Notes: generated by a model not told the origin, from the sequence alone. Numbered from the stretch's first letter, positions 914-29,388 are shown. The stretch is DNA of 32,000 nt from Candidatus Saganbacteria bacterium (GCA_026387835.1 JAPLKZ010000010.1:266379-298378), one strand, 5' to 3'. Program-made: numbers and translations.

Positions 914-946
914 AATATATCGTCAAATATTATTGTGAATTTCACT
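914..946 (-). promoter_or_regulatory. Alternative-sigma-type promoter candidate (AGTGAAAT-N16-CGATATATT) for the secreted-protein gene
   Basis: Minus strand reads AGTGAAAT (946-939), 16 nt, CGATATATT (922-914). It is one of six sites with the same motif and spacing. It lies about 100 nt upstream of ATG 816. Confidence 0.5.
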
Positions 947-978
947 CTTTTTTGTGTTACACAACAATTTCATAAATA

Positions 979-1006
979 TTGCAATCGATGATTAAAATGT
1001 TATAAT
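979..1006 (+). promoter_or_regulatory. Sigma-70-type promoter candidate for the small ORF / two-component operon
   Basis: TTGCAA (979-984), 16-nt spacer ending in TGT (extended -10), TATAAT (1001-1006). The GAGGTGG Shine-Dalgarno and ATG 1035 follow downstream. Confidence 0.5.
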
Positions 1007-1034
1007 ATCCTTATTATATTCCGAGGTGGAACGT

Positions 1035-1298
1035 ATGAACGATGCACATAACACAAATGAAGATCCGAACACAAAACTGGTGGAAAGCATAAAAAAATTC
1101 GCCGCTTCATACCGGGTTTTGACGCCCCAGGGAAAGACCGCCTTCCAGAACCAGATAAACATCCAGATGAAAACGATGGACGAGCGCACAAGAAAACTTT
1201 ATCAGGCTCTTATCGATTCCACAAAGAACGACCTGAACGTGGATAAGACCGTACAAGAGATGGAGAGGGCCGATAAAAGGTATAAGTCCGGCATGTAG
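1035..1298 (+). CDS. Small hypothetical protein (87 aa), predicted helical, no signal peptide
   Basis: The ORF track gives a GTG start at 1026. I prefer ATG 1035 because GAGGTGG (1023-1029) sits at proper Shine-Dalgarno distance from it. No family recognised. It is the first gene of an apparent operon with the response regulator and kinase. Confidence 0.5.
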   Translation: MNDAHNTNEDPNTKLVESIKKFAASYRVLTPQGKTAFQNQINIQMKTMDERTRKLYQALIDSTKNDLNVDKTVQEMERADKRYKSGM

Positions 1299-1327
1299 AT
1301 CCTTTCTTCCCGGAGCGACCAGCAAAA

Positions 1328-1696
1328 TTGAAAAACATTCTTATCGTTGAGGACGTAGAAGACCACTTAGAGATAGTAAAGATCATTCTCGAGCAGTACA
1401 ACTATAACATCCTTACTGCCGCAAACGGCAGATCGGGGCTTGAAACGGTCCAAAAAAAACTTCCCGACCTTATTATCCTGGACGTGATGCTGCCCGAAAT
1501 GAACGGATATGAGGTCTGCAAGGCTATCAGGGCGGACCAGCACACAAGGGTTATCCCTGTGATAATGCTGTCCGTCAAGTCAAATCCCGAAGACATCGAG
1601 GCGGGCTACAAGGCCGGGGCCAACGAATATATCACCAAACCTTTCAATCTTGAAGAACTCGTTAAAAAAGTAAAAAAACATCTAGGGGAGGAATAA
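1328..1696 (+). CDS. Single-domain CheY-like response regulator (receiver domain only, no output domain)
   Basis: Receiver-domain hallmarks: IVEDVED acidic pocket, phospho-acceptor context LIILDVMLPEMNG, and conserved ITKPF lysine. 122 aa, TTG start. Confidence 0.85.
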   Translation: MKNILIVEDVEDHLEIVKIILEQYNYNILTAANGRSGLETVQKKLPDLIILDVMLPEMNGYEVCKAIRADQHTRVIPVIMLSVKSNPEDIEAGYKAGANEYITKPFNLEELVKKVKKHLGEE

Positions 1697-1702
1697 TTAC
1701 AA

Positions 1703-2758
1703 ATGATCAAAGAAGGTAAAAACTGCCTGCTTGTCCAAACTACCGGGATAAAGCCTTTCAAGAGATGCACGTACTGCGAACGCAGGGTGACAGATTGTTT
1801 TGGTATACAGTTTTTTATCGTCGCTTTCGGCATAATAGGGTTGTTGCTCGTAATGTTCACTATTAGGGACCTACCTATACTGGCCATCGACATCACCGTA
1901 TTGATATTGATGATGCTTATCCTGCTGGGTATAATCGCCAGCCGCGAGACGAACGAGATCGTAGTCAATAACTTCCTCCTCAAGGAATTAAACGAAGAGC
2001 TTGAGGCCAGGGTCGCTCAAAGGACTAAAGAGCTCCGGTTCCTGAACCTTGACCTGAAAAAAGCCCTTCGCATAAAGTCCGAATTCCTTAGGAATATAAA
2101 CCACGAGATCAGGACACCTCTTACGGCAATGCTCGGTTACTGCGATATAATAGAACGAAAGCAGCTCGGAGAATTGAACGAAAGGCAGATAAAAGCGGTC
2201 GACGCTTTAAAAAGGAACGGCCAGGACCTTTTGGGCCTTATCAATCAGCTTCTGGACCTTTCAAAACTGGAGGACAACAAGCTGGGGTTAAATGAAGAAT
2301 GGTTCAACATTGCAAAGGTTATCAGCGATGTCACGGTCAATATCGAACCCCTTGCGTCCAAAAAAGACATAAATATTTCCACCAAGATAGATGAAAACGT
2401 TATAACAGTGTTTGGCGACCCCGACCGGATAAAACAGATACTGTTAAATCTGCTTTCGAACAGTATTAAGTTCACCGACAATGGCGGGAAAGTGACCGTT
2501 GAAACAAAAGATGACAAAGACGAGGTCATTGTATCGGTAAGCGATACCGGCGTCGGCATCAAGAGTGGTGACCTGCAAAGTATTTTTGAGCCCTTTTCCC
2601 AGGTCGACGGGTCGCAGACAAGAAAATACGGTGGCGCAGGGATAGGCCTTTCCATCGTGAAAAGCCTTGTTGAAGCGCATGGCGGAAGCGTTACCGTCGA
2701 AAGCGAGTTTGGAAAAGGCAGCGTCTTTTCGTTCACGATCCCAAAAAGAACGGTGTAA
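1703..2758 (+). CDS. Membrane-anchored sensor histidine kinase (HisKA + HATPase_c)
   Basis: H-box [17 protein letters not shown]-box [10 protein letters not shown]1 DTGVGI, G2 [10 protein letters not shown]. Two adjacent N-terminal TM helices with essentially no external loop. GGGGAGGA Shine-Dalgarno upstream. Confidence 0.9.
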
Positions 2759-2762
2759 ATAG

Positions 2763-3971
2763 TTGAGACCCAAGTATTTTTGGATCCTTTTTATATATAT
2801 CTTCCTTATAGCTGTCAGCCTTTCCGGCGTATTTATATGCAATTTTAGTAAGGTCTCAATAACCATACTTGCCCTTGTCAGTTTCAGTTCGGTGATCGCG
2901 GCTGCTCTCCTTATCAGCTGGGGGGCCGAATGCTATCAGTTCGTGGTCTCTCAGGGATTTGCGATCGCGATTATCGCCCTCCTTCAGGTCATCCCGGAGT
3001 TCTTTGTCGAGGGTGTGATCGCGTGGGAAAAGGACGTGCCTCTTATGTTAGCCAACTTTACCGGCTCAAACCGGCTTCTCATGGGAGTGGGATGGTCCGG
3101 TATCTTTTTCATCGCTTCAGTAATGAACTTTGTTAAAAAAAAGAAATTCCTTAAGGAGATCGTGATACGCGAAGCTCACAGCATTGAGGTCGCCGCTCTT
3201 TTAATAAGCAGCTTCTATTTTTGCGTCGTGCTTACAAAAGGCACGCTGACCATAATAGATTCTATTGTGCTTCTTTCGATATTTGCCTGGTATATGAGGC
3301 TTTTGTTCAGGCTCGAGCCAGAGGAAAAAGAAAGGATCGATGACCTTATCGAACCTTGCAAGGTCATCGTAAAAATACAAAATGTTTTCGTAAAAAAGGC
3401 GGTGATACTGTTGCTGTTCGCCGTCGGGGGTGGAACATTTCTATTTATCGCGCAGCCTTTTCTTCACAGCCTGAGGGGTCTTGCCGGCGTTCTCGGCATA
3501 TCGACCTTTCTTTTTGTCCAGTGGGTCGCTCCGTTCCTTTCGGAATTCCCCGAAAAGGTAACCGCCTTTTACTGGGCGGCTCACATAAAACTGGCCCCGA
3601 TGGGTTTGGTTAACTTCATCTCATCAAAAGTGAACCAGTGGACGCTCCTGATAGCTATGGTGCCTGTGGTATATTCGGTTTCCTGCGGGAAGATAATGAC
3701 AGTCCCCCTTGATGATTACCATAAATGGCAGATTGCGCTTTCAATGGCAATGACTTTTTACGGGTGTTCTACACTGGCAAAATTCAGGTTTACTTTTATC
3801 GACGCTTGCTTTATGTTCTCGCTGTGGCTTACCCAGTTCGTTTTTCCGCGGACATTGGCACCGACAACGTTTATATTTTTAGGGCTGACAATAATAAATA
3901 TCTGTATTTACAGGAAAGAGAACAGGCTCTTTAAAAGCTTCGTAAAAACTCTAAAGAGCTTGAAGAATTAA
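2763..3971 (+). CDS. Polytopic membrane protein, probable CaCA (cation/Ca2+ exchanger)-superfamily transporter
   Basis: Two internal repeats resemble CaCA alpha-repeats: IIALLQVIPEFFVEGVIAW...FTGSNRLLMGVGW and FVQWVAPFLSEFPEKVTAFYWA...ISSKVNQWTLL. About 10-11 hydrophobic helices. The TTG start is uncertain, with no good Shine-Dalgarno. Confidence 0.55.
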   Translation: MRPKYFWILFIYIFLIAVSLSGVFICNFSKVSITILALVSFSSVIAAALLISWGAECYQFVVSQGFAIAIIALLQVIPEFFVEGVIAWEKDVPLMLANFTGSNRLLMGVGWSGIFFIASVMNFVKKKKFLKEIVIREAHSIEVAALLISSFYFCVVLTKGTLTIIDSIVLLSIFAWYMRLLFRLEPEEKERIDDLIEPCKVIVKIQNVFVKKAVILLLFAVGGGTFLFIAQPFLHSLRGLAGVLGISTFLFVQWVAPFLSEFPEKVTAFYWAAHIKLAPMGLVNFISSKVNQWTLLIAMVPVVYSVSCGKIMTVPLDDYHKWQIALSMAMTFYGCSTLAKFRFTFIDACFMFSLWLTQFVFPRTLAPTTFIFLGLTIINICIYRKENRLFKSFVKTLKSLKN

Positions 3972-3982
3972 TACGGCCCTAA

Positions 3983-5197
3983 CTATCCGTTGTTAATCAT
4001 ATAAAACAATGATCCCCACAGATTTGTCTCTTGAGAAGGAAATGCACCTGTAACATACTTTGGCGCTTTACCCCAGGACGGTCTTTCGATCGCATCTGCA
4101 CTGAAACGTGTCATATCTCTTGTGAGATATGCACCTTTACTTACGCCCACGCCACCGATCAATGCAAATGTTATCGGCGATGCATGATCATCATATCCTC
4201 TTTGTAAAGCTTCAAGTCTAAAGGCCAGCAGATATGCTATCCTTGTCAGGACCTCTTTGCATATCGGCTCATTCCCTAAAGTTTTTCCCATTACAGCGTC
4301 CACATCATGATAGTTCAAGTGATCACTGGCCGATTTTATAATTTGGCCAGTATCTGTTTTGCTGATATTCATTCCGAGCCTTTGCATTACTTGTTTGATC
4401 AATACGTTCGACCTTAGTTCCGTTTCTGTCATTGCGGGATTTACAATATTGAATATCTGGTCTTTTGTGCGTGCTGAAGCAGCCACTATCCTGATATTGG
4501 ATATCACGCCGCTGATTATCTTGTATATCGAAGGACCCTTTGCCAGTGTTTCAAAACAGACATCACCGTGCTGCCCGGTTATCCCGCAGCCGCAAGGGTC
4601 GAATGGTGCATAATACCTGAGCAATCCAAGGCCGTCGATCATTCTGTCGTGGATCAAAAAATGGCCGGGTTCAAATGCGCCGGGGACCTGCTCGATGCCT
4701 GAAGCGGTTTTCCTGTAAAGCCGTCCTCCGATACCATGCCCGATAATAAGGGCCAGTCCAAGATCGCCTGTCTTTAGATCTTTTAAAGCGCCCTGAGGAC
4801 TGAACTCAGCCCACGCCCCTGCTTCGCCGTCATTTATTAAGATTACATCGACATCTTTACCTGCTTGGGATTTAAAAGCCGTTTTTAGTTCGGCACTGTA
4901 AGGAATGTCTCTTTTTTCGATACCTCCCTGGTTTGTCAGTTTTCTGATAATGCCCGCACCGGTATCCACAGGCCCTGCGATCGAGATCGCTATCCTGTGC
5001 TGATCATCCGGTATATCTCTTAATTGAGACAAAGAAAATCCTATTAGATCCCTTTTGCCGGAAAATTTTAGCTCTATAGCCTCCGGCTTTCCTATCATTG
5101 TCGCCCTCTTGCCGGCTTCTATCTGAAACAATGCTCTCCGGAAAGTCCCTCCACCGATATCGGCAACCATCAGCCTCCTGCATGCAGATGTATTCAT
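3983..5197 (-). CDS. ROK-family (ASKHA-fold) sugar kinase-like protein, atypically long
   Basis: DIGGGTFR phosphate-1 motif, ISIAGPVD, ILINDGEAGAWAE, GHGIGGRL...PGAFEPGH ROK signature, and a Cys-rich CGCGITGQHGDVCFE zinc-motif region. AGGAGG Shine-Dalgarno upstream of ATG 5197. Confidence 0.7.
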   Translation of the reverse strand: MNTSACRRLMVADIGGGTFRRALFQIEAGKRATMIGKPEAIELKFSGKRDLIGFSLSQLRDIPDDQHRIAISIAGPVDTGAGIIRKLTNQGGIEKRDIPYSAELKTAFKSQAGKDVDVILINDGEAGAWAEFSPQGALKDLKTGDLGLALIIGHGIGGRLYRKTASGIEQVPGAFEPGHFLIHDRMIDGLGLLRYYAPFDPCGCGITGQHGDVCFETLAKGPSIYKIISGVISNIRIVAASARTKDQIFNIVNPAMTETELRSNVLIKQVMQRLGMNISKTDTGQIIKSASDHLNYHDVDAVMGKTLGNEPICKEVLTRIAYLLAFRLEALQRGYDDHASPITFALIGGVGVSKGAYLTRDMTRFSADAIERPSWGKAPKYVTGAFPSQETNLWGSLFYMINNG

Positions 5198-5260
5198 GAA
5201 CTAATTACCTCCTGATATTATTTTAATTGTCTTTACAGGTCGTGAAATTTGGCCTCAAAT

Positions 5261-5292
5261 CTATTTCGTGTATATTTTAATGAAATTTCAGT
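5261..5292 (-). promoter_or_regulatory. Alternative-sigma-type promoter candidate (ACTGAAAT-N16-CGAAATAG) for the ROK kinase gene
   Basis: Minus strand reads ACTGAAAT (5292-5285), 16 nt, CGAAATAG (5268-5261). It shares an identical 16-mer, AAATTCACTGAAATTT, with the FGGY kinase promoter region. Confidence 0.45.
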
Positions 5293-5333
5293 GAATTTTT
5301 GAAAATAAGGAAAGACAAGGCGCATGGTCGAAG

Positions 5334-6218
5334 TTAAGGTGCGGTAAATCTCTCGGCAATCCTCTCGAGGTCTTCTTTGGAAAAATAATCTACCTCGATC
5401 TTTCCTTTGTTCTCGTCCCCGCGAAGGCTTATTTTTGTGCCGAGGCTTTCGGTCATTTTTTCGACGACATCCGCAAGGAACGGGTTCAAGGCTGATCTTT
5501 TTGAGGTTTTTGTTTTTCCTTTTGATCTTTCCTTCTTGACGCCAAGTATCGCTTCGACATCCCTGACGGAAAGGTTCGCTTTTAATATCTGCTCCCACGC
5601 TTTGATCTGTTTTTCGCGTCCCTGGATCGTCAAAAGAGGCCTCGCGTGGCCCGCCGTTATCTGCCCGGACGCTATGCTGTCCCTTATTTCTTTTGGCAGG
5701 TCAAGAAGTCTCATAGTGTTCGTCACGGTAGACCTGTCCCTGCTTACTTTTTTTGCGATCTGGTCATGCGTAAGCTTGAACTCCAGCGAAAGAGCTTTAT
5801 AGGCCAAAGCTTCTTCCATCGGGTTCAGGTCCTCCCTTTGTAGGTTTTCAACTATAGCTATTTCGAGAGATTGTTCGTCGGTGAAATCTTTGATGATGGC
5901 GGGGATCGTCGTGATACCGGCCTTTTTTGTGGCTCGCAGTCTTCTCTCTCCCGCCACAAGCTCGAACATGTCACCGTTTTTTCTTAAAAGTACCGGGGAT
6001 GTCACGCCCTGCTCCTTGATGGAGGAAGCAAGCTCGTTCAATTTTGCATGGTCAAAAGACTTCCTGGGCTGCCGCGGATTAGGGATTATTTTTGATATGT
6101 CTACCTGAAGGACCGCGCGTCCCGATGTGAACGGGAGGGCCGCTTTTTCGGTCTCTCCGCCTGAAGGGATGAGTGCGCTTAGGCCCCTGCCAAGGCCGCG
6201 CTTTGCGTTTGTTGACAT
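5334..6218 (-). CDS. parB: Chromosome partitioning protein ParB/Spo0J
   Basis: N-terminal KRGLGRGLSALIP, the ParB box LVAGERRLRA, and an HTH region. Lies directly downstream of parA. Confidence 0.93.
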   Translation of the reverse strand: MSTNAKRGLGRGLSALIPSGGETEKAALPFTSGRAVLQVDISKIIPNPRQPRKSFDHAKLNELASSIKEQGVTSPVLLRKNGDMFELVAGERRLRATKKAGITTIPAIIKDFTDEQSLEIAIVENLQREDLNPMEEALAYKALSLEFKLTHDQIAKKVSRDRSTVTNTMRLLDLPKEIRDSIASGQITAGHARPLLTIQGREKQIKAWEQILKANLSVRDVEAILGVKKERSKGKTKTSKRSALNPFLADVVEKMTESLGTKISLRGDENKGKIEVDYFSKEDLERIAERFTAP

Positions 6219-7057: not shown

Positions 7058-7067
7058 TTATAGGGTT

Positions 7068-7076
7068 AGTATAACA
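7068..7076 (-). promoter_or_regulatory. Extended -10 element (TGTTATACT) 10 nt upstream of the parA ATG
   Basis: Minus strand reads TGTTATACT, AACCCTATAA, ATG(7057). There is no Shine-Dalgarno in the gap, which implies a very short or absent leader. Confidence 0.4.
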
Positions 7077-9545: not shown

Positions 9546-9554
9546 TTTACTTTA

Positions 9555-9582: not shown

Positions 9583-12500
9583 TCAAAAAACGTACGCGTA
9601 CTGAAGCATGAGCTTGTAATATGTAACGCTCCAATCCTTGATATAAGGCATCGGTTCCCTGTAATAAGCCAGCGAATAATATCTGTCGATCTTCCAGGAT
9701 ATCTGATAATTGAAAGATGAATTGTTGTAAACCGTGTTCTGCTGCGTTGACTGCGCGTACTTCAACTGAATAAATATTTTATCAAAAAAGCCCTTAGCTA
9801 TGCCCACGGCCAGCTGTGGTTTGTCTGTATATCCGTACTCTCCGCGTCTTGTCGGAAGGTATTTTTCAAGGTCTCGTCCGAAATTGTAGTCCAGCGTAAA
9901 GCTCTCGAGCCCCAGCGCTTTTTCCACATTGCCTGTTATACTTTTTACAAGATATGAGTTTATGCTGGAGTTAAGGTAATCCACGAGTATCGCGTTCGTA
10001 TCCATAACCCCGCCCGTATTTGACAGGTTCAACGTGTCCCTGACAAAATCAGGCAGTATTATCTCTCTTATTTTATTCTGGTCATAAGTAGTGCTGACCA
10101 TCGGCGGTGTTTTTGAGGCGTCTTCCTTGAACGCGAAAAACTGGATGTTTAAAGGTCTCGCTTTTTCTTTGTCCGAAGGAATGCCGGTCGCTCTTGTCAG
10201 GACATATACTTTTTGCTGGGTATATTCCTGCGGCACACCGCTGTCGATCCCTGACGCAGGAGGCGTGGATTGAGCAACTTTTTCTTTTACCTTGACCTCG
10301 CTCTGCGCCGTGATCGACAGATAAGGCAGAGCAGAGGTTAAACCGCTGCCCCCCGAGAATATGGCTGTGTTTTTCATGATCATTGACCTGTTCAAGCTGA
10401 AATATTGCTCTTGTTTATCTTCGGATAGGATATTAAAATCCCTTCCCAGGATGTTAACCGTACCGCTTTTTATATCTACGTCTCCTATGATTGTCGGGGA
10501 TGACAGGAAACCTTTTAACTCAAGATTTTCAGAGGCTACTTCAAGGTTAATATTAGACATGTCCAGAGAGATCGGCCTGTTCGACTCCCCCTGGACAAGA
10601 TAGACCGATTTGCCGATATTAAGATCGACATCAAAACCGATGTCGACAAAAGGAGCTGCGTCGTTTTGTTTTCCCTGTGGGATTATTACCTTACCGTCAT
10701 GTATGTTAAGGTCTGCTGACAAAACAGCTTTTTGCCTCTTGCTTAATGACCCGTCCATTGATAGCGTGCCTTTCAGGCTCAGGCGCCTCAAATCCGCCTG
10801 CCCGGAATAAAACCCGGGGATGCCGACCGAACCTGTCACGGGAGCTGCTGCGATATTCAGCCAGATCTGTTTTTTGCCGATCAGGTCTGCGAGATCGATA
10901 TCTCCCGCGATAGAAAAAACATCGGATTTTTTCAGTGTCCTGTCTCCCGAGATAGTGCCGGAAAATCTTTTTATCGTCATATAGCTGTCCACTATCTTTA
11001 TGTCCGCGTCAAAGTCATACAAAGTCGATCTGATCTGGTCGATATTGACTACAGCATCATTTATAACGACACTTCCGTTTATTAAAGGTTTATCTATTGT
11101 CCCGCTTAAGTCGAGATCTACTTGCCCTCCTCCCGAAGTCCAACTCACCCCTTTAAACAGCGTAACAAGAAGTCCGGCATTGTCCCCGGCCAGATCTATC
11201 TTGATGTCGATATTTTTTCCCGAGACAAAAGGCATCCTGCCTTTTATAGAAGCTTTCTGCTTGCCGTTGCGTATATCAAGCTCCTCGATATCCAGCATGC
11301 CTCCGGAGTAACGGGCTTTTGAATAAAGGCTTTCGACATAAAAACCTCCCACGGTTGTTTTGCTTATAGAAAAGACGGCATTGATATTGGGATCGAAATA
11401 TTTGCCGTTTGCAGAAGCTTTAACTGTGAGCCTGCCGTCTATAGGAAAAGAAAGGCCGGTCGCGGTCTCTATCTTTTCCGCCGGAAGGTCTTTGGCGGAA
11501 ACATTCAGATCTATAGGACCTTTAACATCGATCATGCCCGATGCATCAAGATTTCCTCCATGATCTTTCAATGACAGGCCATTCAGGTATATTTTCCCGC
11601 TTTTATATGAGCCGGATACATCCAGGCTGTCAAAATCATATTGCCCCAACAGACCGTTGATTATCCTGACCGAGCCTTTGACTTCAACATCCGCTCCCCT
11701 GCCTTTTACAAATATGTTCGCTCCAAGCAAGCCGGATATTTTAAGTTTTGAAATATCGAGCGCGCGCTGCTGTTCTGCCGACGGTTTGACGCTCTTTGTC
11801 CATGCCTTCAGAAAAGCGTTATCCGGAGTGAACAAAACGTCTCCTTTTTGTGATCTATATCCTGACAGATCAGGGAACGAAATATCATCTTTTCTTATCG
11901 CCACCTTTATCGGGGCTTTGTCCGCAGATCCGATCATCCTCAACGCTTCGGAATAGACCATGCTGCTGATCTGGACCGCTGTACTTAACCCGCCCCTGTT
12001 TGTATAGATCTGACCGGAGTAAGACGGCTCTTTCCCGTTAAGGTCCAGCTCTGCGGAGACAGAATATCTGTCAGCGCCCTGACTGATGATAACCGGTCCT
12101 TCGACGGAAATGAATTTATCTTTATACTTTATTGTTCCGTCTAACCTATCCAGCTTTATCTCATTAAAGACAAGGTCTTTTACTCTAAAATTGAGCAAGG
12201 CCAAGGGATGAGAGAATTTCCCGCTGATATTTCCGTTGAACACGGCGCACCCATTGATCCTTGCGAACCTCTGTGTGAGCGGCCTGAGCCTTGCAAGATC
12301 GATATTTCCGCTTAAGTTTATGTCCGCTTTATCATCAAGCCCGGCCTTGCCGGATATAGAAATGTTAGAGTCGCTGTTTGTCAGGGTGATATTCTTTATC
12401 TCGAGTTTCTTTTCCTTTAATTGGAACGATGCTTTTGCCGTTTTGACCTCTTCGCCTGATAATATCGCATCCTTAAGTTCCATCTCGCATGAAACATCAA

Positions 12501-19221: not shown

Positions 19222-19231
19222 CGGGATATAA

Positions 19232-19249
19232 ATTATAACATGCTATAAT
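19232..19249. promoter_or_regulatory. Back-to-back divergent extended -10 elements for pcrA (minus) and galT (plus)
   Basis: ATTATAACA|TGCTATAAT. The plus strand reads TGCTATAAT (19241-19249), 6 nt before ATG 19256. The minus strand reads TGTTATAAT (19240-19232), 10 nt before ATG 19221. Together they form a 16/18 palindrome inside a 34-bp intergenic region. Confidence 0.5.
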
Positions 19250-21072: not shown

Positions 21073-22557
21073 CTACACGAGGTGTCCATTAAATCGGGGA
21101 AGGTCAAATTGAGACTCATATCCGTGTTTTATTTCTTGATAGATATCTCTATTCATCGGATTTGGACTGAATGTTTTTCCCCATGTGATCATATGTTTAG
21201 CTGCGGTTTTGAAGTCCGGGTAAAACCCGAGCCCGACAGCAGCGATCATAGCAGCCCCGAGAGCAGAAGCTTCAGTCTCGGCATTGAGAGTCACCGGCAC
21301 ACAGAGCGCGTCCGCGAATATCTGCGGCCAGGTTCCCGTATTATCGCGCGCTCCTCCTCCCGCAAGATTGGCCCTTGTTATCAGCGTGCCGAAATCACGC
21401 ATTCTGTCAGCGCACATTACCATTTCAATTGCGACCGCTTCCATGAAAGCCCTGGCAATATGGGGCCTGCCATGAGTTGACTTCAGCCCGGTTATCTGAC
21501 CGGCCAGACCTGGGTCCCTAAGCGGATGGTTTGCACCGGACAACCACGGGAATACCCTAACGCCTTCTGAGCCAGGACCGACTTTTAAGGCCGCTTGAGT
21601 AAGTTCATCCGGATCTAATCCGGTAATCTTTGATAACCAGTCAAATGCGCCGCCTGACGACATGCAGCACGCCATCAGCCAGTCTCCAAAAAAGTGGATC
21701 AGACCTTCCGGATCGCGTTTGCGCTCAGATGTAAATGCGGTCGTCACTCCCGATGTCCCAAGGTTAAAGCCCGCAACCCCGGCCTCAACTACCCCGAGTC
21801 CGATCCTCGCGCACTGCTGGTCCCCTCCTCCCGCAAAAACAGGGGTTCCCTCTAGCAATCCGGTCAGTTGAGCTGCTTCTTTGATTATTCGGCCAACCAT
21901 ATTAGTAGAATTGACTAACAGGGCAAATTTATTGGCCATACCCAGTGCTTTAAATAACCCGTCCGCATATTTCCCGTCAACTCCTATCGCTCCGATCATG
22001 TCGGACCTTTCCTGTCTTAATTCCCCTGTCAGATGATAATTCCACCAGTCTTTTGGTGTAACTACATATTTTGTCGCATCCCAAATATCCGGTTGTACTT
22101 TCATCCTGTGAAGCGCTTTGATGATCGTCCACCTTACTGCCGGTTGATTTCCGGTCAACTCGACAAAAAGATCCTTCGGAACACTTTCATATTGTGGCGC
22201 AGACCTGGGGCAATCCCACATCGATGCAGGGACTATCGGCACCAACTTGCCTCCCGCACCACTCCCGAGCAGAACATCACCGTGCATCCAGCCTGAGGTC
22301 GAGACTGCCAGTACTTCTTTTGGATCAATGTTTGTTGTAATGCGTTCTTTTATCGCCTTGCATCCCGCATCTGCAAGCTTGACCATATCCTGTTCTTTAA
22401 ATCCGCTTGGAAGAGTCTTATAACTACAGGGCCATGCATCTGTTGTATGGCATTTATAGCTTTGTCCGGGAGTGGTACTTACCCTGATCGGTAAAACTCT
22501 TACTCCATGGGTACCGAAATCTACGCCAAGAATAACTCCGCTTTTTTGGACCGGCAT
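21073..22557 (-). CDS. FGGY-family carbohydrate kinase (substrate unknown)
   Basis: ILGVDFGTHG N-terminal ATPase motif, FAGGGDQQCA, and the NLAGGGARDN...WPQIFADALCVPV C-terminal motif. The ORF track starts at TTG 22596. I prefer ATG 22557, which is preceded by AGGAGGAAG and lies downstream of the predicted promoter. Confidence 0.8.
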   Translation of the reverse strand: MPVQKSGVILGVDFGTHGVRVLPIRVSTTPGQSYKCHTTDAWPCSYKTLPSGFKEQDMVKLADAGCKAIKERITTNIDPKEVLAVSTSGWMHGDVLLGSGAGGKLVPIVPASMWDCPRSAPQYESVPKDLFVELTGNQPAVRWTIIKALHRMKVQPDIWDATKYVVTPKDWWNYHLTGELRQERSDMIGAIGVDGKYADGLFKALGMANKFALLVNSTNMVGRIIKEAAQLTGLLEGTPVFAGGGDQQCARIGLGVVEAGVAGFNLGTSGVTTAFTSERKRDPEGLIHFFGDWLMACCMSSGGAFDWLSKITGLDPDELTQAALKVGPGSEGVRVFPWLSGANHPLRDPGLAGQITGLKSTHGRPHIARAFMEAVAIEMVMCADRMRDFGTLITRANLAGGGARDNTGTWPQIFADALCVPVTLNAETEASALGAAMIAAVGLGFYPDFKTAAKHMITWGKTFSPNPMNRDIYQEIKHGYESQFDLPRFNGHLV

Positions 22558-22691: not shown

Positions 22692-22729
22692 TCAAAAGAA
22701 AAACCTCCAAACAGGAATGGAGGTTTTTT
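22692..22729 (-). terminator. Rho-independent terminator candidate after the small-ORF pair (potentially bidirectional)
   Basis: Stem AAAAACCTCC (22699-22708) pairs with GGAGGTTTTT (22719-22728) around a 10-nt loop. The minus-strand transcript ends in UUUUUCUUUU. A T6 run also follows on the plus strand. Confidence 0.55.
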
Positions 22730-22749
22730 GCTTGAGAGAACAGCAACCG

Positions 22750-22968
22750 CTAATTCTTGCAGTTGCTCAGTTTGAGAGAACACCATTTAGCAAGATCGCC
22801 GATCATAACGAACCTGAAGGATGCTTTCAGGTCGGGCGATCCGCTTAAATGACACTGTCTGTAAAGGGTCGCTGTATAAGGTTTTGTCTCCCTTATTTCT
22901 TCGAGATAACCTTTAAAGATCATCTCGTTAAGCACTTTTAGCATTTTCGTATCGTTTAAGTTGAACAT
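22750..22968 (-). CDS. Small hypothetical protein (72 aa), second gene of a two-gene module
   Basis: GGAGA Shine-Dalgarno lies inside the end of the upstream ORF, with a 4-nt intergenic gap. The terminator begins about 20 nt after the stop. There is weak, unverified resemblance of LSGSPDLKASFRFVMIGD to the L-x-G...R-[IV]-G-D core of RelE/ParE-type toxins, but the protein is too short to be a complete one. Confidence 0.5.
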   Translation of the reverse strand: MFNLNDTKMLKVLNEMIFKGYLEEIRETKPYTATLYRQCHLSGSPDLKASFRFVMIGDLAKWCSLKLSNCKN

Positions 22969-22972
22969 TTTG

Positions 22973-23164
22973 TTATCTCCAGTAAGAGACCGTTCTTCCG
23001 GGGGCTTGCCCCATGGAAAAACGGTTGGATATTATATTTATGAAACTTCCGGCTTCGTTCTTGATCAGTTCGGACAGGGCGGCGGAAGTGTTGCTCTTTA
23101 CATACCTCTTGCCGCTTATCTCTATCTTTTCTATTGTCGTGTTAAGTCTTTCTGCGTCTGTCAT
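22973..23164 (-). CDS. Small hypothetical protein (63 aa), first gene of a two-gene module
   Basis: The ORF track starts at GTG 23182. I prefer ATG 23164, preceded by GAAGGGGAAAGAG, because the proximal promoter (-10 at 23192-23184) would start transcription downstream of 23182. There is weak, unverified resemblance of SNTSAALSELIKNEA to helix 2 of ribbon-helix-helix regulators. Confidence 0.5.
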   Translation of the reverse strand: MTDAERLNTTIEKIEISGKRYVKSNTSAALSELIKNEAGSFINIISNRFSMGQAPGRTVSYWR

Positions 23165-23183
23165 TGTCTCTTTCCCCTTCACT

Positions 23184-23216
23184 TATTTATCGTCAATAAT
23201 TTCAGGAAATTTCACT
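23184..23216 (-). promoter_or_regulatory. Alternative-sigma-type promoter candidate (AGTGAAAT-N16-CGATAAATA), proximal promoter of the small-ORF pair
   Basis: Minus strand reads AGTGAAAT (23216-23209), 16 nt, CGATAAATA (23192-23184). The -10 9-mer is identical to the site at 29364-29356. Confidence 0.5.
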
Positions 23217-23217
23217 C

Positions 23218-23248
23218 AAACCGGTCTTTTTTAAAGAATCTCCGGTTT
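23218..23248. other. Interrupted inverted repeat / hairpin between the two tandem promoters
   Basis: AAACCGG (23218-23224) pairs with CCGGTTT (23242-23248). An inner TCTTT/AAAGA stem is present. On the plus strand it is followed by TTTTGTCCTGTTTTG. Confidence 0.35.
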
Positions 23249-23257
23249 TGTCCTGTT

Positions 23258-23290
23258 TTGATATCGGCTTGAATTTTTGAATATTTCACT
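23258..23290 (-). promoter_or_regulatory. Alternative-sigma-type promoter candidate (AGTGAAAT-N16-CGATATCAA), distal promoter of the small-ORF pair
   Basis: Minus strand reads AGTGAAAT (23290-23283), 16 nt, CGATATCAA (23266-23258). With the two preceding bases the -10 region reads GCCGATAT. Confidence 0.5.
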
Positions 23291-23315
23291 GTTTTAGAAT
23301 ATACTTACATATAAT

Positions 23316-24434
23316 ATGTACGGGGTACTTGTTCTTGAGGACGGGATGTATTTTGAAGGCGAGGCTTTCGGGGCTGAGGGGGTATCTTTCGGGGAAGCCG
23401 TTTTCAATACGAGCATGACCGGATACCAGGAGATACTTACCGACCCCTCCTATAAATACCAGATAATAACGATGACCTGCCCGCTTATTGGCAACTACGG
23501 GGTCAATAAGGACGATATGGAATCCTTAAAGCCCCATTGCTCCGGTTTTGTCGTCAGGGAAAAAAGCAACATCTTCAGCAACTGGAGGGCGGAGACCGAC
23601 CTTGATTCTTTCCTGAAAAAGCACAATGTCATCGGCCTCTCCGAAATAGACACCAGGGCTTTGACAAGGCACATAAGGAGCAAAGGAGCTATGAAAGCCG
23701 TGATATCGTCATCAGAGACGGACATCAAGGATCTGCACAAAAAAGTGGCCGCTTCCGCTTCGATCGTCGGGATGGACCTTGTAAAGGATGTAAGCTGTGA
23801 AGAACCGTATTCATGGGAAAAGGGCCGCAGGGATTTTTTGACCGATCCGAAAAAGAAGAATAAAGATTCATTCAATGTTGTCGTTTTTGATTTCGGCGTG
23901 AAGTTCAATATCCTGAGAAAACTTCATTCTTTGGGGTGTAAAGTAACGGTAGTCCCCGCCGGCACAAAATCTGAAGAGATTTTTAAGTTAAAGCCGGACG
24001 GGATCCTGCTGTCAAACGGACCCGGAGATCCCAAAGCCGTGGCCTACGCGATAGAGACGGTACAAAAGCTCGTAGGCAAGTTCCCGATATTCGGTATCTG
24101 CCTCGGCCATCAGATATTATCGCTGGCGTTCGGAGGCAAGACCTATAAACTGAAATTCGGCCACAGGGGCGCCAACCACCCGGTAAAGAATCTTTTGACG
24201 GGAAGGATCGAGATCACATCCCAGAACCACGGGTTCGCGGTGGACCCCGGGTCCTTCAGGAACACGAACATCGATCTCACCCATATAAACCTGAACGACG
24301 GAACGTGCGAAGGGCTGTGCCATAAGAACCTGCCGGCTTTTTCGGTCCAGTATCACCCGGAAGCGTCCCCCGGCCCGCATGACAGCGAGTATTTGTTCAC
24401 AAAGTTCATTGACATGATGAAAAAGGGGCTGTGA
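23316..24434 (+). CDS. carA: Carbamoyl-phosphate synthase small (glutamine amidotransferase) subunit CarA
   Basis: N-terminal LVLEDGMYFEGEAFG...FNTSMTGYQEILTDPSY, catalytic GICLGHQ, and HGFAV...QYHPEASPGPHD. No carB follows. Confidence 0.93.
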   Translation: MYGVLVLEDGMYFEGEAFGAEGVSFGEAVFNTSMTGYQEILTDPSYKYQIITMTCPLIGNYGVNKDDMESLKPHCSGFVVREKSNIFSNWRAETDLDSFLKKHNVIGLSEIDTRALTRHIRSKGAMKAVISSSETDIKDLHKKVAASASIVGMDLVKDVSCEEPYSWEKGRRDFLTDPKKKNKDSFNVVVFDFGVKFNILRKLHSLGCKVTVVPAGTKSEEIFKLKPDGILLSNGPGDPKAVAYAIETVQKLVGKFPIFGICLGHQILSLAFGGKTYKLKFGHRGANHPVKNLLTGRIEITSQNHGFAVDPGSFRNTNIDLTHINLNDGTCEGLCHKNLPAFSVQYHPEASPGPHDSEYLFTKFIDMMKKGL

Positions 24435-25447
24435 TGGAAAGGATCCTTAAAAGCAAATATAAGATCCTTGAAAAGATAGCGGAGTTATCGTCCCACAACA
24501 CATACTCCGGCGCTTTTGCCGACACCGAAAAACCGCTCATAATAAAGATCTTCAACAGGGGCATATTGAACAGCACCCTTACAAAAAAACTTAAGAAAGA
24601 TGTCGTCAGGCTTACGAAGCTTGAACACCAGTTCATCCCGAGGGTCTACGACGGCGACTACGGCTGGCAAGGTTTCTATTTTGTCAGGGACTTTGTGGAG
24701 GGAAAAACGCTGGATGAGACGAAAAAACCGTTTGAGATCGAGGCCGCGTGCGAGCTTATGACAAAAGTCTGCGGACTTCTTTCTTTCGCGCATGAAAACG
24801 GCATAGCCCACGGGTCGCTTACGCCGAACAATGTCTTCATCTCAAAAAAGAACGTCTTCATATCCGATTTTGGCATAGAATCGGCCGTCAACCAGATGCT
24901 CGAGCAAAAGACCATGTCGCTTTTTTCTGAAAACGCAGCGTTCTTCGCCCCCGAAATGGTCCTTGGGGAGGAAGCTAGCATCCTTTCCGACATCTACCAG
25001 GCGGGATTATTGTTTTATCTGATACTTACCGGCAGGCTGCCTGCCGACGGGCAGAAAGGGCTTTCAAGCGCCCTGACAAGCCTTGGCGGCACAGTCCCCA
25101 CGCCTTCATCGGTGAACGGCAAGGTGCCGAGATACCTGGACGAGATCGTTCTTAAATGCCTGGAAAAAGATCCTCTTCTGCGCTTTGCCGGTGCCGCGCA
25201 GCTTTCCGAAAGCATCAACAATAAAGTATTGATGCTCCCGAAAACCGAGATCTTCGAACTGCCGGAGATCGATCTGAACATCGAAGAGGAGTCAAGAAAA
25301 GACGAGCCGGTATTAGTCGAACTGCCCAACATCGAAGAAAAAAGTGATAAAATCAATCTGTTCAGGTGGATAATGTTCGCTGTCTGGGCTGCAATAGCGG
25401 CAGGGATAATATATTCTCTGATACAGATATTTATAATAGGTGAATGA
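24431..25447 (+). CDS. Ser/Thr protein kinase-like protein, predicted pseudokinase, with a C-terminal TM anchor
   Basis: The Hanks-type fold is recognisable: LIIKIF lysine, SDFG, APE, and DIYQAGLLFYLILTGRLP. However, the glycine-rich loop is degenerate (AELSSHNTYSG) and the catalytic loop HRDLKPxN reads HGSLTPNN, so it has no catalytic Asp. It ends in the TM helix IMFAVWAAIAAGIIYSLIQIFII. The start is either GTG 24431 or ATG 24434; both overlap the carA stop. Confidence 0.75.
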   Translation: MMERILKSKYKILEKIAELSSHNTYSGAFADTEKPLIIKIFNRGILNSTLTKKLKKDVVRLTKLEHQFIPRVYDGDYGWQGFYFVRDFVEGKTLDETKKPFEIEAACELMTKVCGLLSFAHENGIAHGSLTPNNVFISKKNVFISDFGIESAVNQMLEQKTMSLFSENAAFFAPEMVLGEEASILSDIYQAGLLFYLILTGRLPADGQKGLSSALTSLGGTVPTPSSVNGKVPRYLDEIVLKCLEKDPLLRFAGAAQLSESINNKVLMLPKTEIFELPEIDLNIEEESRKDEPVLVELPNIEEKSDKINLFRWIMFAVWAAIAAGIIYSLIQIFIIGE

Positions 25448-26037
25448 TGGCTGATCTAGTTATTTATTTTATGCTCTCGGCCGTGGCACTCGCGGTGATA
25501 GGATATTTTATCGGCGCGGGAAAGATCTCTTTGAAGCCGGTCACTTTGCTTGTCATGTTCCTGATCCTGGTGCTGCCGGTCGGGCTGAATCTTTTTATCT
25601 GGATCTACTCGGGGACGATCCCCGAAGTGTTCGTCCCGGACGTACTTGGAAGTCCGGGCAGTGACGCGGTCGCAGTGCTTGAGAAGACTGGCCTTAAAGG
25701 CGAAATAGCCGGGATATCCTTCTCAAAAGAACCGGGCGGCACCGTCATCAGCCAGCAGCCCGAAGGCGGTAAAAAAGTCAAGGCGGGCCGCCTTGTCAAA
25801 CTGATCATCAGTGCAAGGGAAAGATCGGTCACCGTACCGAACCTTATCGGAAAGACAAGCACGGAAGCGGAAAGCATTCTTATTTCTTTCGGCCTTAATA
25901 TCGGCCAGGTGTTCGAAAGCCCGGGCGACGGAACGCTCGGTATAGTGACAGACCAGAAACCGGCCGTGGGAGAGGTCGTATCGCTGGGGTCCAACGTCTC
26001 GGTCACTATAACCGTAGGAAATGAAACCCGTGATTAA
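25444..26037 (+). CDS. Membrane protein with two N-terminal TM helices and two PASTA domains
   Basis: PASTA repeats VPDVLGSPGSDAVAVLEKTGLKGEI...GTVISQQPEGGKKVKAGRLVKLIIS and VPNLIGKTSTEAESILISFGLNIGQV...GIVTDQKPAVGEVVSLGSNVSVTIT. ATGA overlap with the upstream kinase-like gene. Confidence 0.8.
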   Translation: MMADLVIYFMLSAVALAVIGYFIGAGKISLKPVTLLVMFLILVLPVGLNLFIWIYSGTIPEVFVPDVLGSPGSDAVAVLEKTGLKGEIAGISFSKEPGGTVISQQPEGGKKVKAGRLVKLIISARERSVTVPNLIGKTSTEAESILISFGLNIGQVFESPGDGTLGIVTDQKPAVGEVVSLGSNVSVTITVGNETRD

Positions 26038-26677
26038 GATAGCACCTTCAATATTATCAGCCGACTTCTCCAGGCTGGGGGAAGAGATCAGGGCTGTGGA
26101 AGCGGCCGGCGCGGACCTCATACATATCGACGTTATGGACGGGCATTTTGTGCCTAACATCACGATCGGCCCCGCGATCGTCAGAGCTGCAAGGCGCGTA
26201 ACGGCTCTTCCTCTGGATGTCCATCTTATGATAGAGGATCCCGCTAAATATATCCGTTCTTTTCTTGACGCGGGCAGTGATATAATCTCTTTTCACATCG
26301 AAACTGCAAAGGATCCTGACAAAGTGATCCGGGAGATCAAAAATTCCGGCAAGGGCGCGGCGATCGCGCTGAACCCTGACACAGACATAAAAAAAATAGA
26401 ACCATATCTGGAAAAGATAAAGATGGTCCTTGTAATGTCTGTATTCCCGGGGTTTGAAAAGCAGGTTTTCATCCCGAGTGTCCTCCCGAACATAAAAAAG
26501 CTGCGCGATATCATTTCGGCAAAAAAGCTGGATGTCGACATCGAGGTGGACGGCGGCATAAACCCGATCACGTCTAAAGACGTCATTTCCGCCGGCGCAA
26601 ATATCCTTGTCGCGGGATCTGCGGTCTTTTACGGCGATGATTACAAAAAAGCCATTCGGTCAATAAGAAATGCTTGA
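26021..26677 (+). CDS. rpe: Ribulose-phosphate 3-epimerase
   Basis: IAPSILSADFSRLGEE, HIDVMDGHFVPNITIGP, and VDGGIN motifs. Overlaps the PASTA gene end by 17 nt. Confidence 0.93.
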   Translation: MKPVIKIAPSILSADFSRLGEEIRAVEAAGADLIHIDVMDGHFVPNITIGPAIVRAARRVTALPLDVHLMIEDPAKYIRSFLDAGSDIISFHIETAKDPDKVIREIKNSGKGAAIALNPDTDIKKIEPYLEKIKMVLVMSVFPGFEKQVFIPSVLPNIKKLRDIISAKKLDVDIEVDGGINPITSKDVISAGANILVAGSAVFYGDDYKKAIRSIRNA

Positions 26678-27795
26678 TAAATAAAATGACCCCACAAAAA
26701 AATGGCGCTGATATAAAATTCATGAGAGAGGCGCTAAAGCTTGCCTCAAAAGTTTTGGGCCTTGTCTCGCCAGATCCCGCAGTCGGAGCGGTGATCGTCA
26801 AGAACGGGAAGATCATCAGCAAAGGATATCATAATAAATTTTCAACCCCCCACGCCGAGGACTATGCGATCAGGAAAGCAGGGAAATCTGCAAAAGGATC
26901 TACCCTTTATATCAACCTTGAGCCCTGCTGCCATTATGGCAACAATCCGCCGTGCACTGATAACATCATAAGGTCCGGGATAAAAAGGGTCGTCGCTGCC
27001 ATGAAAGACCCTAATCCTCTCGTCAACGGCAAGGGCTTTAAAAGGTTGAAAAAGGCCGGAATAAAAGTTGACGTCGGCTTACTTGAAAATGAGGCCGCAG
27101 TGCTCAACGAGTTTTTTGTCGGGCATATCACGACAAAAAGACCTTTTGTGATACTGAAGATGGCGATGAGCCTTGACGGAAAGATTGCCACTAAACTCGG
27201 GGAGAGCCGCTGGATTTCCGGAGATAAATCAAGGGAATTTGTGCATTATTTAAGGGGCATCGTCGATGCGGTTATGGTAGGCATCGGAACTTTGCTTAAG
27301 GATGATCCTCTGCTTAATGTGAGAAATGCAAAAGGCAAAAATCTCACTGACCCGCTGAAGATAATAATCGATCCTGAAGCAAGGGTCCTCCTATGCTCAA
27401 AAGTCCTACAAGACCCGTCAAGGGTTATCGTTGCCGTATCTGAAGCGGCCCCGGCTATCAGGGTAAAAAAGCTGGAAGGCATCGGCGCAAAAGTGATAAA
27501 GGTAAGGTCCCGTAAAGGAGAAATGGACCTTGGCCATCTTTTATCAACCCTTGGAAAACAAAAAATAACAAGTATCATGATCGAGGGCGGCGGGAATCTG
27601 GCGGCCTCTGCCATCGGGACTGGGATTGTCGATAAGGTCGTGTTCATCGTTGCACCAAAGATAATCGGTGGCAAGACGTCCCCTACCCCGGTTGAAGGCA
27701 AAGGGATCGATATCCTGGCGCGCGCACTCCGCCTGAAAAATGTCTCCACAAGAAGGCTTGGCGAGGATATAATAATAGAAGGATATTTAAAATGA
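26674..27795 (+). CDS. ribD: Bifunctional riboflavin biosynthesis protein RibD (pyrimidine deaminase / uracil reductase)
   Basis: Deaminase zinc motifs HAEDYAI and PCCHYGNNPPC. C-terminal reductase domain (MSLDGKIA...ESRWISG). The start is either TTG 26674, overlapping the rpe stop, or ATG 26686. Confidence 0.9.
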   Translation: MINKMTPQKNGADIKFMREALKLASKVLGLVSPDPAVGAVIVKNGKIISKGYHNKFSTPHAEDYAIRKAGKSAKGSTLYINLEPCCHYGNNPPCTDNIIRSGIKRVVAAMKDPNPLVNGKGFKRLKKAGIKVDVGLLENEAAVLNEFFVGHITTKRPFVILKMAMSLDGKIATKLGESRWISGDKSREFVHYLRGIVDAVMVGIGTLLKDDPLLNVRNAKGKNLTDPLKIIIDPEARVLLCSKVLQDPSRVIVAVSEAAPAIRVKKLEGIGAKVIKVRSRKGEMDLGHLLSTLGKQKITSIMIEGGGNLAASAIGTGIVDKVVFIVAPKIIGGKTSPTPVEGKGIDILARALRLKNVSTRRLGEDIIIEGYLK

Positions 27796-28649
27796 AGGTC
27801 CTTGAACTTATTTTCATAACGATGCAACCGTCAAGATGGTGGCGTTGCAGCGTGATACTTATTTCTTTGTTCTTTACCGGAGGAGCATGGAATATTATAA
27901 TCATATTGAAAATGATCGTGGCTTTCCTGATATTTTCTCTCCTCACCGGTGCCATCAATATAATGGACGATATAGCCGACCTTGAAAAAGATAAGCAGGA
28001 CCTATTAAAGCGCACCAAGCCGCTGGCAAGCGGCGAACTGTCCGTGAACAAGGCCGAGTTTTCCGTCGCGATGCTGCTAATAGGCTCGTTTGTCGCCGCT
28101 TTTTTCTTCGGGCCGCTGTTCGGCGCTGCAGCGGTAGGTTATTTCTTCATCGAACTGTGCTATTATCTCTTTTTCAAAAAAATAGCCGTGGTCGACAGCC
28201 TCGCGATCGCTGGTGAAACCTGCATGCTGTTCATTGCCGGTACTGTCGCCTCGGGGAAAGTTCTTTCTTCGTGGCTTTTTGTCTTTGTAGTCGCGTCATC
28301 GGTCTTCCTGGTCTTCTGCGAGAACAAAAGGCGCCTTGCGCTGTCACCGGAAGACCAGGGACTTTTAAAAAAATACGGTGCGGCATCTTTGGGGCGGCTT
28401 ATCGATATCTCCGCTCCTTTTGTCCTTATCATCTATTCTTTATATACTCTGATATCTCCCGACGGGATAAGGTTCAATCTTGTGTATACCGTTCCCTTTG
28501 CCATGTATGCTGTCTACAGGATCATGATGCTGATAGATGAAAAGACCTCTGACAAAGGGTTTGAAAAAATACTGCTAAAGGATAGGAATTTCATTGTTGC
28601 AATTGGATCGTGGGCGGCGCTTCTTCTGGTATTGACCTCGATATTTTAA
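27792..28649 (+). CDS. UbiA-superfamily prenyltransferase, decaprenyl-phosphate phosphoribosyltransferase-like
   Basis: First Asp-rich motif NIMDDIADLEKDKQDLLKRTKPLASG (N-x3-D-x3-D followed by K-R-x-x-P-[LI]-A-S-G), about 8 TM helices, and a second polar loop ENKRRLALSPEDQGLLKKY. ATGA overlap with the ribD stop. Confidence 0.65.
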   Translation: MKVLELIFITMQPSRWWRCSVILISLFFTGGAWNIIIILKMIVAFLIFSLLTGAINIMDDIADLEKDKQDLLKRTKPLASGELSVNKAEFSVAMLLIGSFVAAFFFGPLFGAAAVGYFFIELCYYLFFKKIAVVDSLAIAGETCMLFIAGTVASGKVLSSWLFVFVVASSVFLVFCENKRRLALSPEDQGLLKKYGAASLGRLIDISAPFVLIIYSLYTLISPDGIRFNLVYTVPFAMYAVYRIMMLIDEKTSDKGFEKILLKDRNFIVAIGSWAALLLVLTSIF

Positions 28650-28656
28650 ATTTTTT

Positions 28657-28690
28657 TACTTCCCGCCTTCAAGAAGAAGGAACAGGACCG
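28657..28690. repeat. Left copy of a diverged direct repeat equal to the 3' coding end of pyrB (relic gene end)
   Basis: 31/34 identical to 29458-29491. Read on the minus strand it still encodes VLFLLLEGGK followed by TAA. All differences from the functional pyrB end are at third codon positions. Confidence 0.8.
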
Positions 28691-28714
28691 TTCCGACTCT
28701 TTCACAAAGTGTAA

Positions 28715-29284
28715 TTATTTTAAGTCCTCAACAAGACGGACCGCAATAATGTAGTCACGAAACCACGATGGTTGGGTGTGGCGGTTCTCGATGTGCAAGC
28801 AGCGAAGGGCAAAGGATCTTTTTTCAACGGGGGTTTCTGTCCATTCCCATTTGCTTCCGGATAGTTTACTTCCGATTGTTGCCGCGGCATCTAGCCATTC
28901 TTTTTCGGTTGGGAGCCTAAAACTTCTTCCTGTCATTTCGCTCAACCATTTAGCATATGCCCGGCCATCATTCAAGTTTAAATATATTGCCGTTATTGTT
29001 TGACCGGGAAGGGTTGACACTAGAAGGTTTGCTTTGTCTCCGGTGATCGCGTATTTTGCGCTATCAACAAATTGGCGGAATTGGTCAGTCGTGACCTCCC
29101 CTTTCATTATTCTAATAGGCTTTCCGGTAATTTTTGCGAACGCCGGTATTTGCATGCGCGTTAAGATTGTATCATCCCCTTGTTTTATTCTATCTGCTAC
29201 TGATAATAAGCGCCTAAAGTCTATTCTTGACACGGGTTTCCCGCCGCTCATCCATCCGCTCATGGTCCCTCTAATATTATTCAC
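28715..29284 (-). CDS. Minimal FGE-sulfatase (SUMF1/EgtB/PvdO-type) domain protein, 189 aa
   Basis: Family hallmarks IRIMKGEVTTDQFRQFV, LNLNDGRAYAKWLSEMTGRSFRLPTEKEWLDAA, SKWEWTE, and C-terminal IIAVRLV. GTG start 29284 is preceded by AAGGAG. No signal peptide. Confidence 0.7.
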   Translation of the reverse strand: MNNIRGTMSGWMSGGKPVSRIDFRRLLSVADRIKQGDDTILTRMQIPAFAKITGKPIRIMKGEVTTDQFRQFVDSAKYAITGDKANLLVSTLPGQTITAIYLNLNDGRAYAKWLSEMTGRSFRLPTEKEWLDAAATIGSKLSGSKWEWTETPVEKRSFALRCLHIENRHTQPSWFRDYIIAVRLVEDLK

Positions 29285-29355
29285 TACTTTTCTCCTTTTG
29301 ATATTTTCGCCCTTATCTACGGCCGCTCAAATTAGGGCTCTATTTCCCATCTACA

Positions 29356-29388
29356 TATTTATCGAAAAAAAACATCTGGGATTTCACT
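29356..29388 (-). promoter_or_regulatory. Alternative-sigma-type promoter candidate (AGTGAAAT-N16-CGATAAATA) for the FGE-sulfatase-like gene
   Basis: Minus strand reads AGTGAAAT (29388-29381), 16 nt, CGATAAATA (29364-29356). Confidence 0.5.

Follow-up and report, generated by a model that had tools for sequence, protein, structure and literature searches.

The stretch analysed here, hereafter the window, comprises 32,000 nucleotides (nt) of a Candidatus Saganbacteria genome (GCA_026387835.1, JAPLKZ010000010.1:266379-298378) and carries, among other genes, a ROK-family kinase gene, an FGGY kinase gene, a pair of small open reading frames (ORFs) divergent from carA, and a gene for an FGE-sulfatase-domain protein. 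Upstream of these genes, and of a cell-surface operon of which the greater part extends past the left end of the window, lie copies of a bipartite motif, A[G/C]TGAAAT-N16-CGA[T/A]A. The motif has exactly six matches in the 32,000-nt window, all on the minus strand (Table 1), and the pattern search returned precisely the six sites, with their invariant 16-nt spacer, that an earlier note on this DNA had listed. All six are wholly intergenic and share the orientation of the next gene, in a window of which 1472 of 32000 bases (4.6%, counted from the gene map) are intergenic. They very probably represent one promoter class, whose reader would be an alternative sigma factor of the sigma-70 family, dedicated to this class and encoded outside the window.

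The gap between CGATA and the start codon is approximately 23 nt at the proximal and 97 nt at the distal site of the small-ORF pair, approximately 44 nt at the FGGY kinase gene (ATG at 22557), 66 nt at the ROK kinase gene, 75–96 nt at the FGE-sulfatase-domain gene and 101 nt at the gene for the secreted protein, close to the 23–101 nt that the earlier note had given for these minus-strand, intergenic sites. Gene callers place the start of the FGGY kinase gene at a TTG (22596), 5 nt past CGATA; judged by its context, the ATG at 22557, which lies behind AGGAGG, would be a far better start and would leave a leader of approximately 44 nt.

The six perfect sites form a class that is cleanly set apart from the background rather than the top of a continuum, because a search for the core TGAAAT-N16-CGAWA with one mismatch allowed gave no additional site in the window. 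The expectation for ASTGAAAT-N16-CGAWA is 0.02 sites, and none of 100 dinucleotide-preserving shuffles reached six. The strict core had no match in 1.23 Mb of unrelated bacterial loci, and with a weight matrix made from 11 sites the true sites scored 24.6–36.4, no control position in 1.38 Mb scoring at least 14.

Table 1 Motif sites, genes and contrasting promoters, with the promoter of the extracytoplasmic function (ECF) sigma operon in relatives; aa, amino acids
Feature	Position	Strand	Description
Site 1	946-918	-	AGTGAAAT (946-939), 16 nt, CGATA (922-918); upstream of cell-surface operon
Site 2	5292-5264	-	ACTGAAAT, 16 nt, CGAAA; between parB stop and ROK-family kinase gene
Site 3	22630-22602	-	ACTGAAAT, 16 nt, CGATA; upstream of FGGY kinase gene
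Site 4 (proximal, P1)	23216-23188	-	AGTGAAAT, 16 nt, CGATA; small-ORF pair
Site 5 (distal, P2)	23290-23262	-	AGTGAAAT, 16 nt, (GC)CGATA; 74 nt upstream of site 4, in the region divergent with carA
Site 6	29388-29360	-	AGTGAAAT, 16 nt, CGATA; upstream of FGE-sulfatase-domain gene
Operon of site 1		-	Genes for secreted 351/367-aa protein, 256-aa protein, 973-aa TIG/fn3/CBM protein and 648-aa SLH protein
ROK-family kinase gene	3983-5197	-	Protein with the DxGGT and CxCGxxGxxxC motifs of ROK sugar kinases
FGGY (xylulokinase-like) kinase gene	21073-22557	-	Downstream of site 3
Intrinsic terminator	22695-22730	-	AAAACCTCCA-loop-TGGAGGTTTT, then T run; predicted end of small-ORF transcript, read from the sequence
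Small ORF B	22750-22968	-	64-72 aa; after ORF A
Small ORF A	22973-23164	-	63 aa; ATG 23 nt after site 4
FGE-sulfatase-domain gene	28715-29284	-	Short; between ubiA and pyrB
Sigma-70-type promoter	979-1006	+	TTGCAA-N16-(TGt)TATAAT; operon of 87-aa protein, response regulator and histidine kinase (at 1035, +)
TamB operon promoter	14268-14240	-	Canonical sigma-70 type
Sigma-70-type extended -10 promoter	30430-30401	-	TTTTCA-N18-TGnTATAAT, before pyrB
ECF operon promoter, L101	~9640-9680		GGAAC-N17-CGTCTAA
ECF operon promoter, L102	~9640-9690		GGAAC-N17-CGTCTAA
ECF operon promoter, L103	~3400-3450		GGAAC-N17-CGTCTAA; TGTCAAA in L103

Conservation of the two boxes in related genomes

The comparative sample comprises approximately 211 kb of related DNA from ten related genomes. 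Relatives were reached through carA homologues (72–80% protein identity, approximately 70–75% DNA identity in coding regions) and through ROK homologues of 34–40% identity (L120–L123, one of which is labelled Candidatus Margulisiibacteriota); in the genome-collection scan with carA, the best among the matches listed was 63% identical, so that no close relative was among them. Contigs L081–L085 and L091–L098, which are 99.9–100% identical to the window, come from the same population and provide no independent evidence.

In total, 19 sites were counted in these approximately 211 kb, and the spacer is 16 nt long in all of them. Each of the 19 is intergenic or at a gene boundary and co-oriented with the next gene, whereas spacers of 15 or 17 nt were met solely within coding sequence. 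In all 19 the −35 box has G in first place (TGAAAT) and AAT at its end, and the −10 core is CGA. The full CGATA is present in 16 of the 19, the other three reading CGAAA, CGAGA and CGATG, and the next base is A or T in most.

Three targets of the window, namely the ROK kinase, the small-ORF pair and the FGE-sulfatase-domain gene, have orthologues that also carry the motif upstream. The motif is found at the ROK gene in five lineages, in five different genomic contexts: TGAAAT-N16-CGATA precedes the ROK homologue in each of L120, L121, L122 and L123, with different neighbouring genes in each of the five genomes. At the small-ORF pair it is found in four lineages. The pair is divergent from carA in all three relative lineages, where (A)(G/A)TGAAAT-N16-CGATA is positioned 20–22 nt before the ATG and the spacer sequence is different in each; site 4 is thus conserved in L086, L087–90 and L099. 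In L086 an FGE-sulfatase-domain gene, whose product has only weak similarity to that of the window, is located at another chromosomal place and also has the motif. The putative promoter, as read from these arrangements, is moving together with its gene, the ROK gene being found in five contexts and the FGE gene in two places. Further sites precede a glycogen-synthase-like gene followed by a phosphoglucose isomerase gene (L120), the gene of a 488-aa Pro/Ala/Lys-rich protein (L102) and two unannotated genes (L121). Sites found without ascertainment occur approximately once per 28 kb in the relatives, which implies promoters of the order of 100 per genome.

Among the ROK orthologues, identity is 91% in the boxes, 32% in the spacer and 30% in the flanks; among the small-ORF orthologues, it is 96% in the boxes, 54% in the spacer and 24% in the upstream flank. 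The boxes are thus 91–96% identical where the spacer is 32–54% and the upstream flank 24–30% identical, and this combination of conserved boxes, fixed distance and diverged spacer is the textbook footprint left by a protein in contact with a pair of short elements. The central claim of the earlier note, that of a regulon under a non-housekeeping sigma factor, is strongly supported by this comparison: at orthologous genes the boxes and their 16-nt spacing are conserved, and spacers and flanks have diverged.

A predicted class of alternative-sigma promoters

Housekeeping promoters in the same DNA have a different form. Sigma-70-type elements precede the operon at 1035, pyrB and the TamB operon in the window (Table 1), and rplU and infC of L121 have near-consensus TTGACA/TGnTATAAT promoters, in agreement with the earlier statement that housekeeping genes here use TGnTATAAT. 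Since canonical sigma-70 promoters coexist with it in the same genomes, the motif is, on its sequence, a promoter class distinct from the housekeeping one. It resembles the housekeeping promoter (TTGACA-N17-TATAAT) in its bipartite architecture and in its position relative to genes, but both boxes differ, and the motif has no TTGACA-like and TATAAT-like hexamers 16–18 nt apart.

In the proposed mechanism, RNA polymerase carrying the dedicated alternative sigma factor would recognise all six sites through a −35 element, (A)(G/C)TGAAAT, mostly behind an A-rich stretch, and a −10 element, CGATA(A/T), with exactly 16 nt between them; as at sigma-28 and ECF promoters, transcription would be expected to start approximately 6–9 nt downstream of CGATA. 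The regulon would be old and common to Saganbacteria and other Margulisbacteria. Its core would be the ROK-type sugar kinase together with the lineage-specific pair of approximately 60–70-aa proteins, and in individual genomes it would include the FGGY kinase, the glycogen-synthase-like protein and phosphoglucose isomerase, the FGE-sulfatase-domain proteins and the SLH/TIG surface operon. We infer that the reader is a sigma factor and not another protein, and likewise its family, the transcription start and the function of the regulon. Gene annotation and a phmmer search found no sigma gene among the genes of the window, which agrees with the earlier supposition that the sigma factor is encoded elsewhere.

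As to the family of that factor, a group-3 sigma factor resembling sigma-28 (FliA/SigD/WhiG), with its −35 specificity moved from TAAA to GAAA, is the candidate we favour, tentatively and at somewhat short of even chances. The sigma-28 consensus is TAAAGTTT-n11-GCCGATAA, also written TAAA-N15-GCCGATAA (PMC2859248). The distance from AAA to CGA is 17 nt in both this consensus and the motif, and from GAAA to CGATA it is 17 nt in 19 of 19 sites; the −10 core CGATA(A/T) is identical to that of GCCGATAA, the spacing is equally strict, and in both an A/T-rich region lies upstream. The distal small-ORF site reads GCCGATAT, as the earlier note had correctly reported. The likeness to sigma-28 promoters claimed there thus stands for the 17-nt geometry and the CGATA(A/T) core, but not for the first −35 base, which is invariably G.

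Several observations weigh against this assignment or against the sigma-factor interpretation as a whole. In all 19 sites the first base of the −35 element is G rather than T, and the box is longer, (A)GTGAAAT; replacing the first −35 T with C in the aer promoter of E. coli lowers sigma-28-dependent activity approximately tenfold (PMC2859248). The GC expected before CGATA is found in 3 of the 19 sites (window 23290, L121 11129, and L099 with GG-CGATA), the bases elsewhere being GA, GT and others. Flagellar, chemotaxis and other motility genes are absent from the 19 genes downstream of the sites, in line with the earlier claim that motility targets are lacking, although the approximately 211 kb sampled hold no flagellar gene at all whose promoter could be compared. 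Sigma-28-family regulons without motility genes do exist, as in Chlamydia (sigma-28) and Streptomyces (WhiG). No sigma gene is linked to the motif, and promoter activity is itself a prediction from the sequence; phmmer searches of the approximately 211 kb of related DNA, with an E. coli FliA sequence and with an ECF query, gave one ECF sigma factor and no other sigma factor. Finally, the geometry of the motif is identical to that of two ECF promoter types.

An ECF (group 4) sigma factor, such as a relative of sigma-W or PvdS, is the second candidate reader of the motif by an otherwise unchanged mechanism, although we regard it as rather unlikely. The Bacillus subtilis sigma-W promoter type is TGAAAC-N16-CGTA. 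The iron-starvation box of PvdS is TAAAT-N16-CGT (PMC2235872). The −35 sequence GAAAT resembles both TAAAT and GAAAC, being one base from each type; the two-box formula, the 16-nt spacer and its strictness are shared; several targets are envelope or surface proteins, including those of the SLH/TIG operon; and ECF sigma genes exist in this lineage. The −10 core, however, is CGA and never CGT in 19 of 19 sites, with a further conserved TA and then A or T, and the −35 box ends in AAT and never in the AAC of ECF promoters (GGAAC or TGAAAC), a signature to which the TAAAT of PvdS is itself an exception. The likeness to TGAAAC-N16-CGTA noted earlier is therefore confined to the spacer and a similar −35 box, and fails where the motif has CGA for CGT and AAT for AAC. 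No adjacent pair of sigma and anti-sigma genes carries the motif; the single ECF operon sampled has its own promoter, GGAAC-N17-CGTCTAA, and no motif copy, and so gives no sign of autoregulation through the motif. Many targets are cytoplasmic sugar-metabolism genes, and the implied promoters, approximately 100, exceed the usual ECF regulon; because that number is large for an ECF sigma factor, a sigma-28-like factor is favoured on regulon size.

The ECF operon in question lies approximately 10 kb from carA in the relatives, was recovered in three lineages by a metagenome scan, and encodes a 177–182-aa sigma factor, a 95-aa membrane protein and a 157-aa periplasmic protein with LTxxQ repeats. 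This carA-proximal sigma factor was rejected as the reader of the motif on the strength of the operon's conserved promoter in L101, L102 and L103. A 69-aa C-terminal fragment of it gave no match as a protein-database query. By its sequence, the operon's promoter seems to mark another sigma regulon of this lineage, independent of the first. Promoters of the sigma-32, sigma-H/ComX and cyanobacterial SigF/SigJ types were also rejected, as their box spacing or sequences do not fit.

It is improbable that an activator bound at TGAAAT replaces the −35 element and that the housekeeping sigma factor reads a weak −10 element around GATAnn. GATA(A/T)(A/T) is loosely like the start of TATAAT, and two sites overlap sigma-70-like matches, of 10/12 at site 946 and 9/12 at site 5292. 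Against this, the C and G before ATA are invariant and the T with which sigma-70 requires the −10 element to end is not conserved; most activator sites show a repeat or dyad symmetry, which the upstream box lacks; the real sigma-70 promoters of these genomes are near consensus; and a spacer of exactly 16 nt in all 19 sites, across genomes of approximately 70% DNA identity, is the mark of a single protein in contact with both boxes. The overlapping pairs read TTCACA-N16-TATTAT (912-939, minus strand) and TTCAAA-N18-TAAAAT (5274-5303, minus strand), and could be either dual promoters or chance matches.

That the sites stem from a repeated or mobile element, an RNA motif or a chance cluster, and lack promoter function, is scarcely credible: the FGE gene with its site does look like an inserted cassette, but spacers and flanks are unrelated between sites, which are therefore not copies of one element, the window has no Rfam match (nor any tRNA match), shuffles place chance expectation at the 0.02 sites given above, and at orthologous positions only the two boxes are conserved.

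Genes and secondary features around the sites

The small proteins encoded by ORFs A and B have no match in Pfam or NCBIfam. Their homologues make up six small clusters among 1.84 billion representative proteins, apart from two spurious immunoglobulin-repeat matches, and by this search the proteins appear confined to this lineage, without a recognisable family. The pair occupies 22750-23164 (minus strand) in the window, 7027-7440 in L086, 9590-9984 in L087 and 9470-9869 in L099. ORF A ends in ...GSFINI(L/I)(A/S)NR.S...APGR.VS(Y/H)WR and ORF B contains ...IGDLAKWCSLK.... Site 3, of the FGGY kinase gene, is located directly downstream of the terminator of the pair.

The tandem sites before the pair in the window (23165-23315) match two separated promoters in L086 (7440-10000). 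The L086 homologue of site 5, at position 9976, is weaker, having CGAGA as its −10 box, and precedes genes for a 246-aa protein and a 570-aa AAA-ATPase, which are followed by the small ORFs; L099 has a degenerate remnant of the distal site. Because the 246-aa and AAA-ATPase genes lie between the matching promoters of L086, the tandem arrangement most likely arose, to judge by this alignment, from loss of the two genes in the lineage of the window, the distal promoter being the one predicted to drive them in L086.

The FGE-sulfatase-domain gene fits its earlier description as an inserted cassette. In L086, L087, L089 and the P0011 contig, ubiA adjoins pyrB, and only in the lineage of the window do the FGE gene and its site stand between them (28650-29456).

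A purine-rich block, T(T/A)GA(G/T)GG(G/A)AAA, starts approximately 6 nt after CGATA in many sites (approximately 6–18 nt downstream). It is present at window sites 946, 23216 and 29388, at L086 5287 and 7489, in L087, L099 and L102, and at L121 11129, and is absent at the ROK sites of L120–L123. Before the small ORFs the block doubles as ribosome-binding site; it occurs also at sites with leaders of 75–150 nt (946, 29388, the L086 FGE site and L102), and its sequence at the two FGE sites includes an ATG, the start of a mini-ORF of 5–7 codons. With transcription starting where proposed, the block would sit at the extreme 5′ end of the predicted transcripts.

The annotated ATG of carA (23316, plus strand) directly adjoins a TATAAT hexamer (CATATAATATG; window 23300-23320), so either the start codon or the promoter assignment would be unusual. 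Two further divergent intergenic regions, 19222-19243 and 30381-30423, are likewise very short. The source organism is diderm, because BamA and TamB are encoded in the window. The carA product of the window is identical to a protein of a Candidatus Saganbacteria metagenome-assembled genome; the accessions are MCX5749677-79, with locus tags NTZ10_05490/05495.

Bearing on Saganbacteria and Margulisbacteria

The literature searched on Saganbacteria and Margulisbacteria treats their metabolism and does not discuss transcriptional regulation, and flagella, motility and sigma factors go unmentioned in the main genomics paper on Saganbacteria; searching for the motif strings yielded only primer sequences and papers on other subjects. 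Both groups are uncultured, and a scannable motif with conserved targets is a first handle on a regulon there. The motif enables assignment of a sigma factor to its regulon through phylogenetic profiling across metagenome-assembled genomes, and offers possible orthogonal promoter and sigma parts. It introduces no new principle of gene regulation, being a well-known kind of element in an uncultured lineage.

The regulon as we infer it suggests that carbohydrate handling or storage may be connected with the cell surface. It is possible, if doubtful, that in the Saganbacteria/Margulisbacteria, which are the sister group of Cyanobacteria, a sigma-28-family or other novel group-3 sigma factor, its −35 specificity altered, has turned from flagellar genes to other targets. 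Such a factor would control a large, ancient regulon of approximately 100 promoters that combines sugar phosphorylation and glycogen metabolism (ROK, FGGY, glycogen-synthase-like protein and phosphoglucose isomerase) with surface proteins and the pair of tiny proteins, and that genes would join as promoter-plus-gene cassettes. The motif itself has a bearing on the diversification of sigma-28-like and ECF-like specificities.

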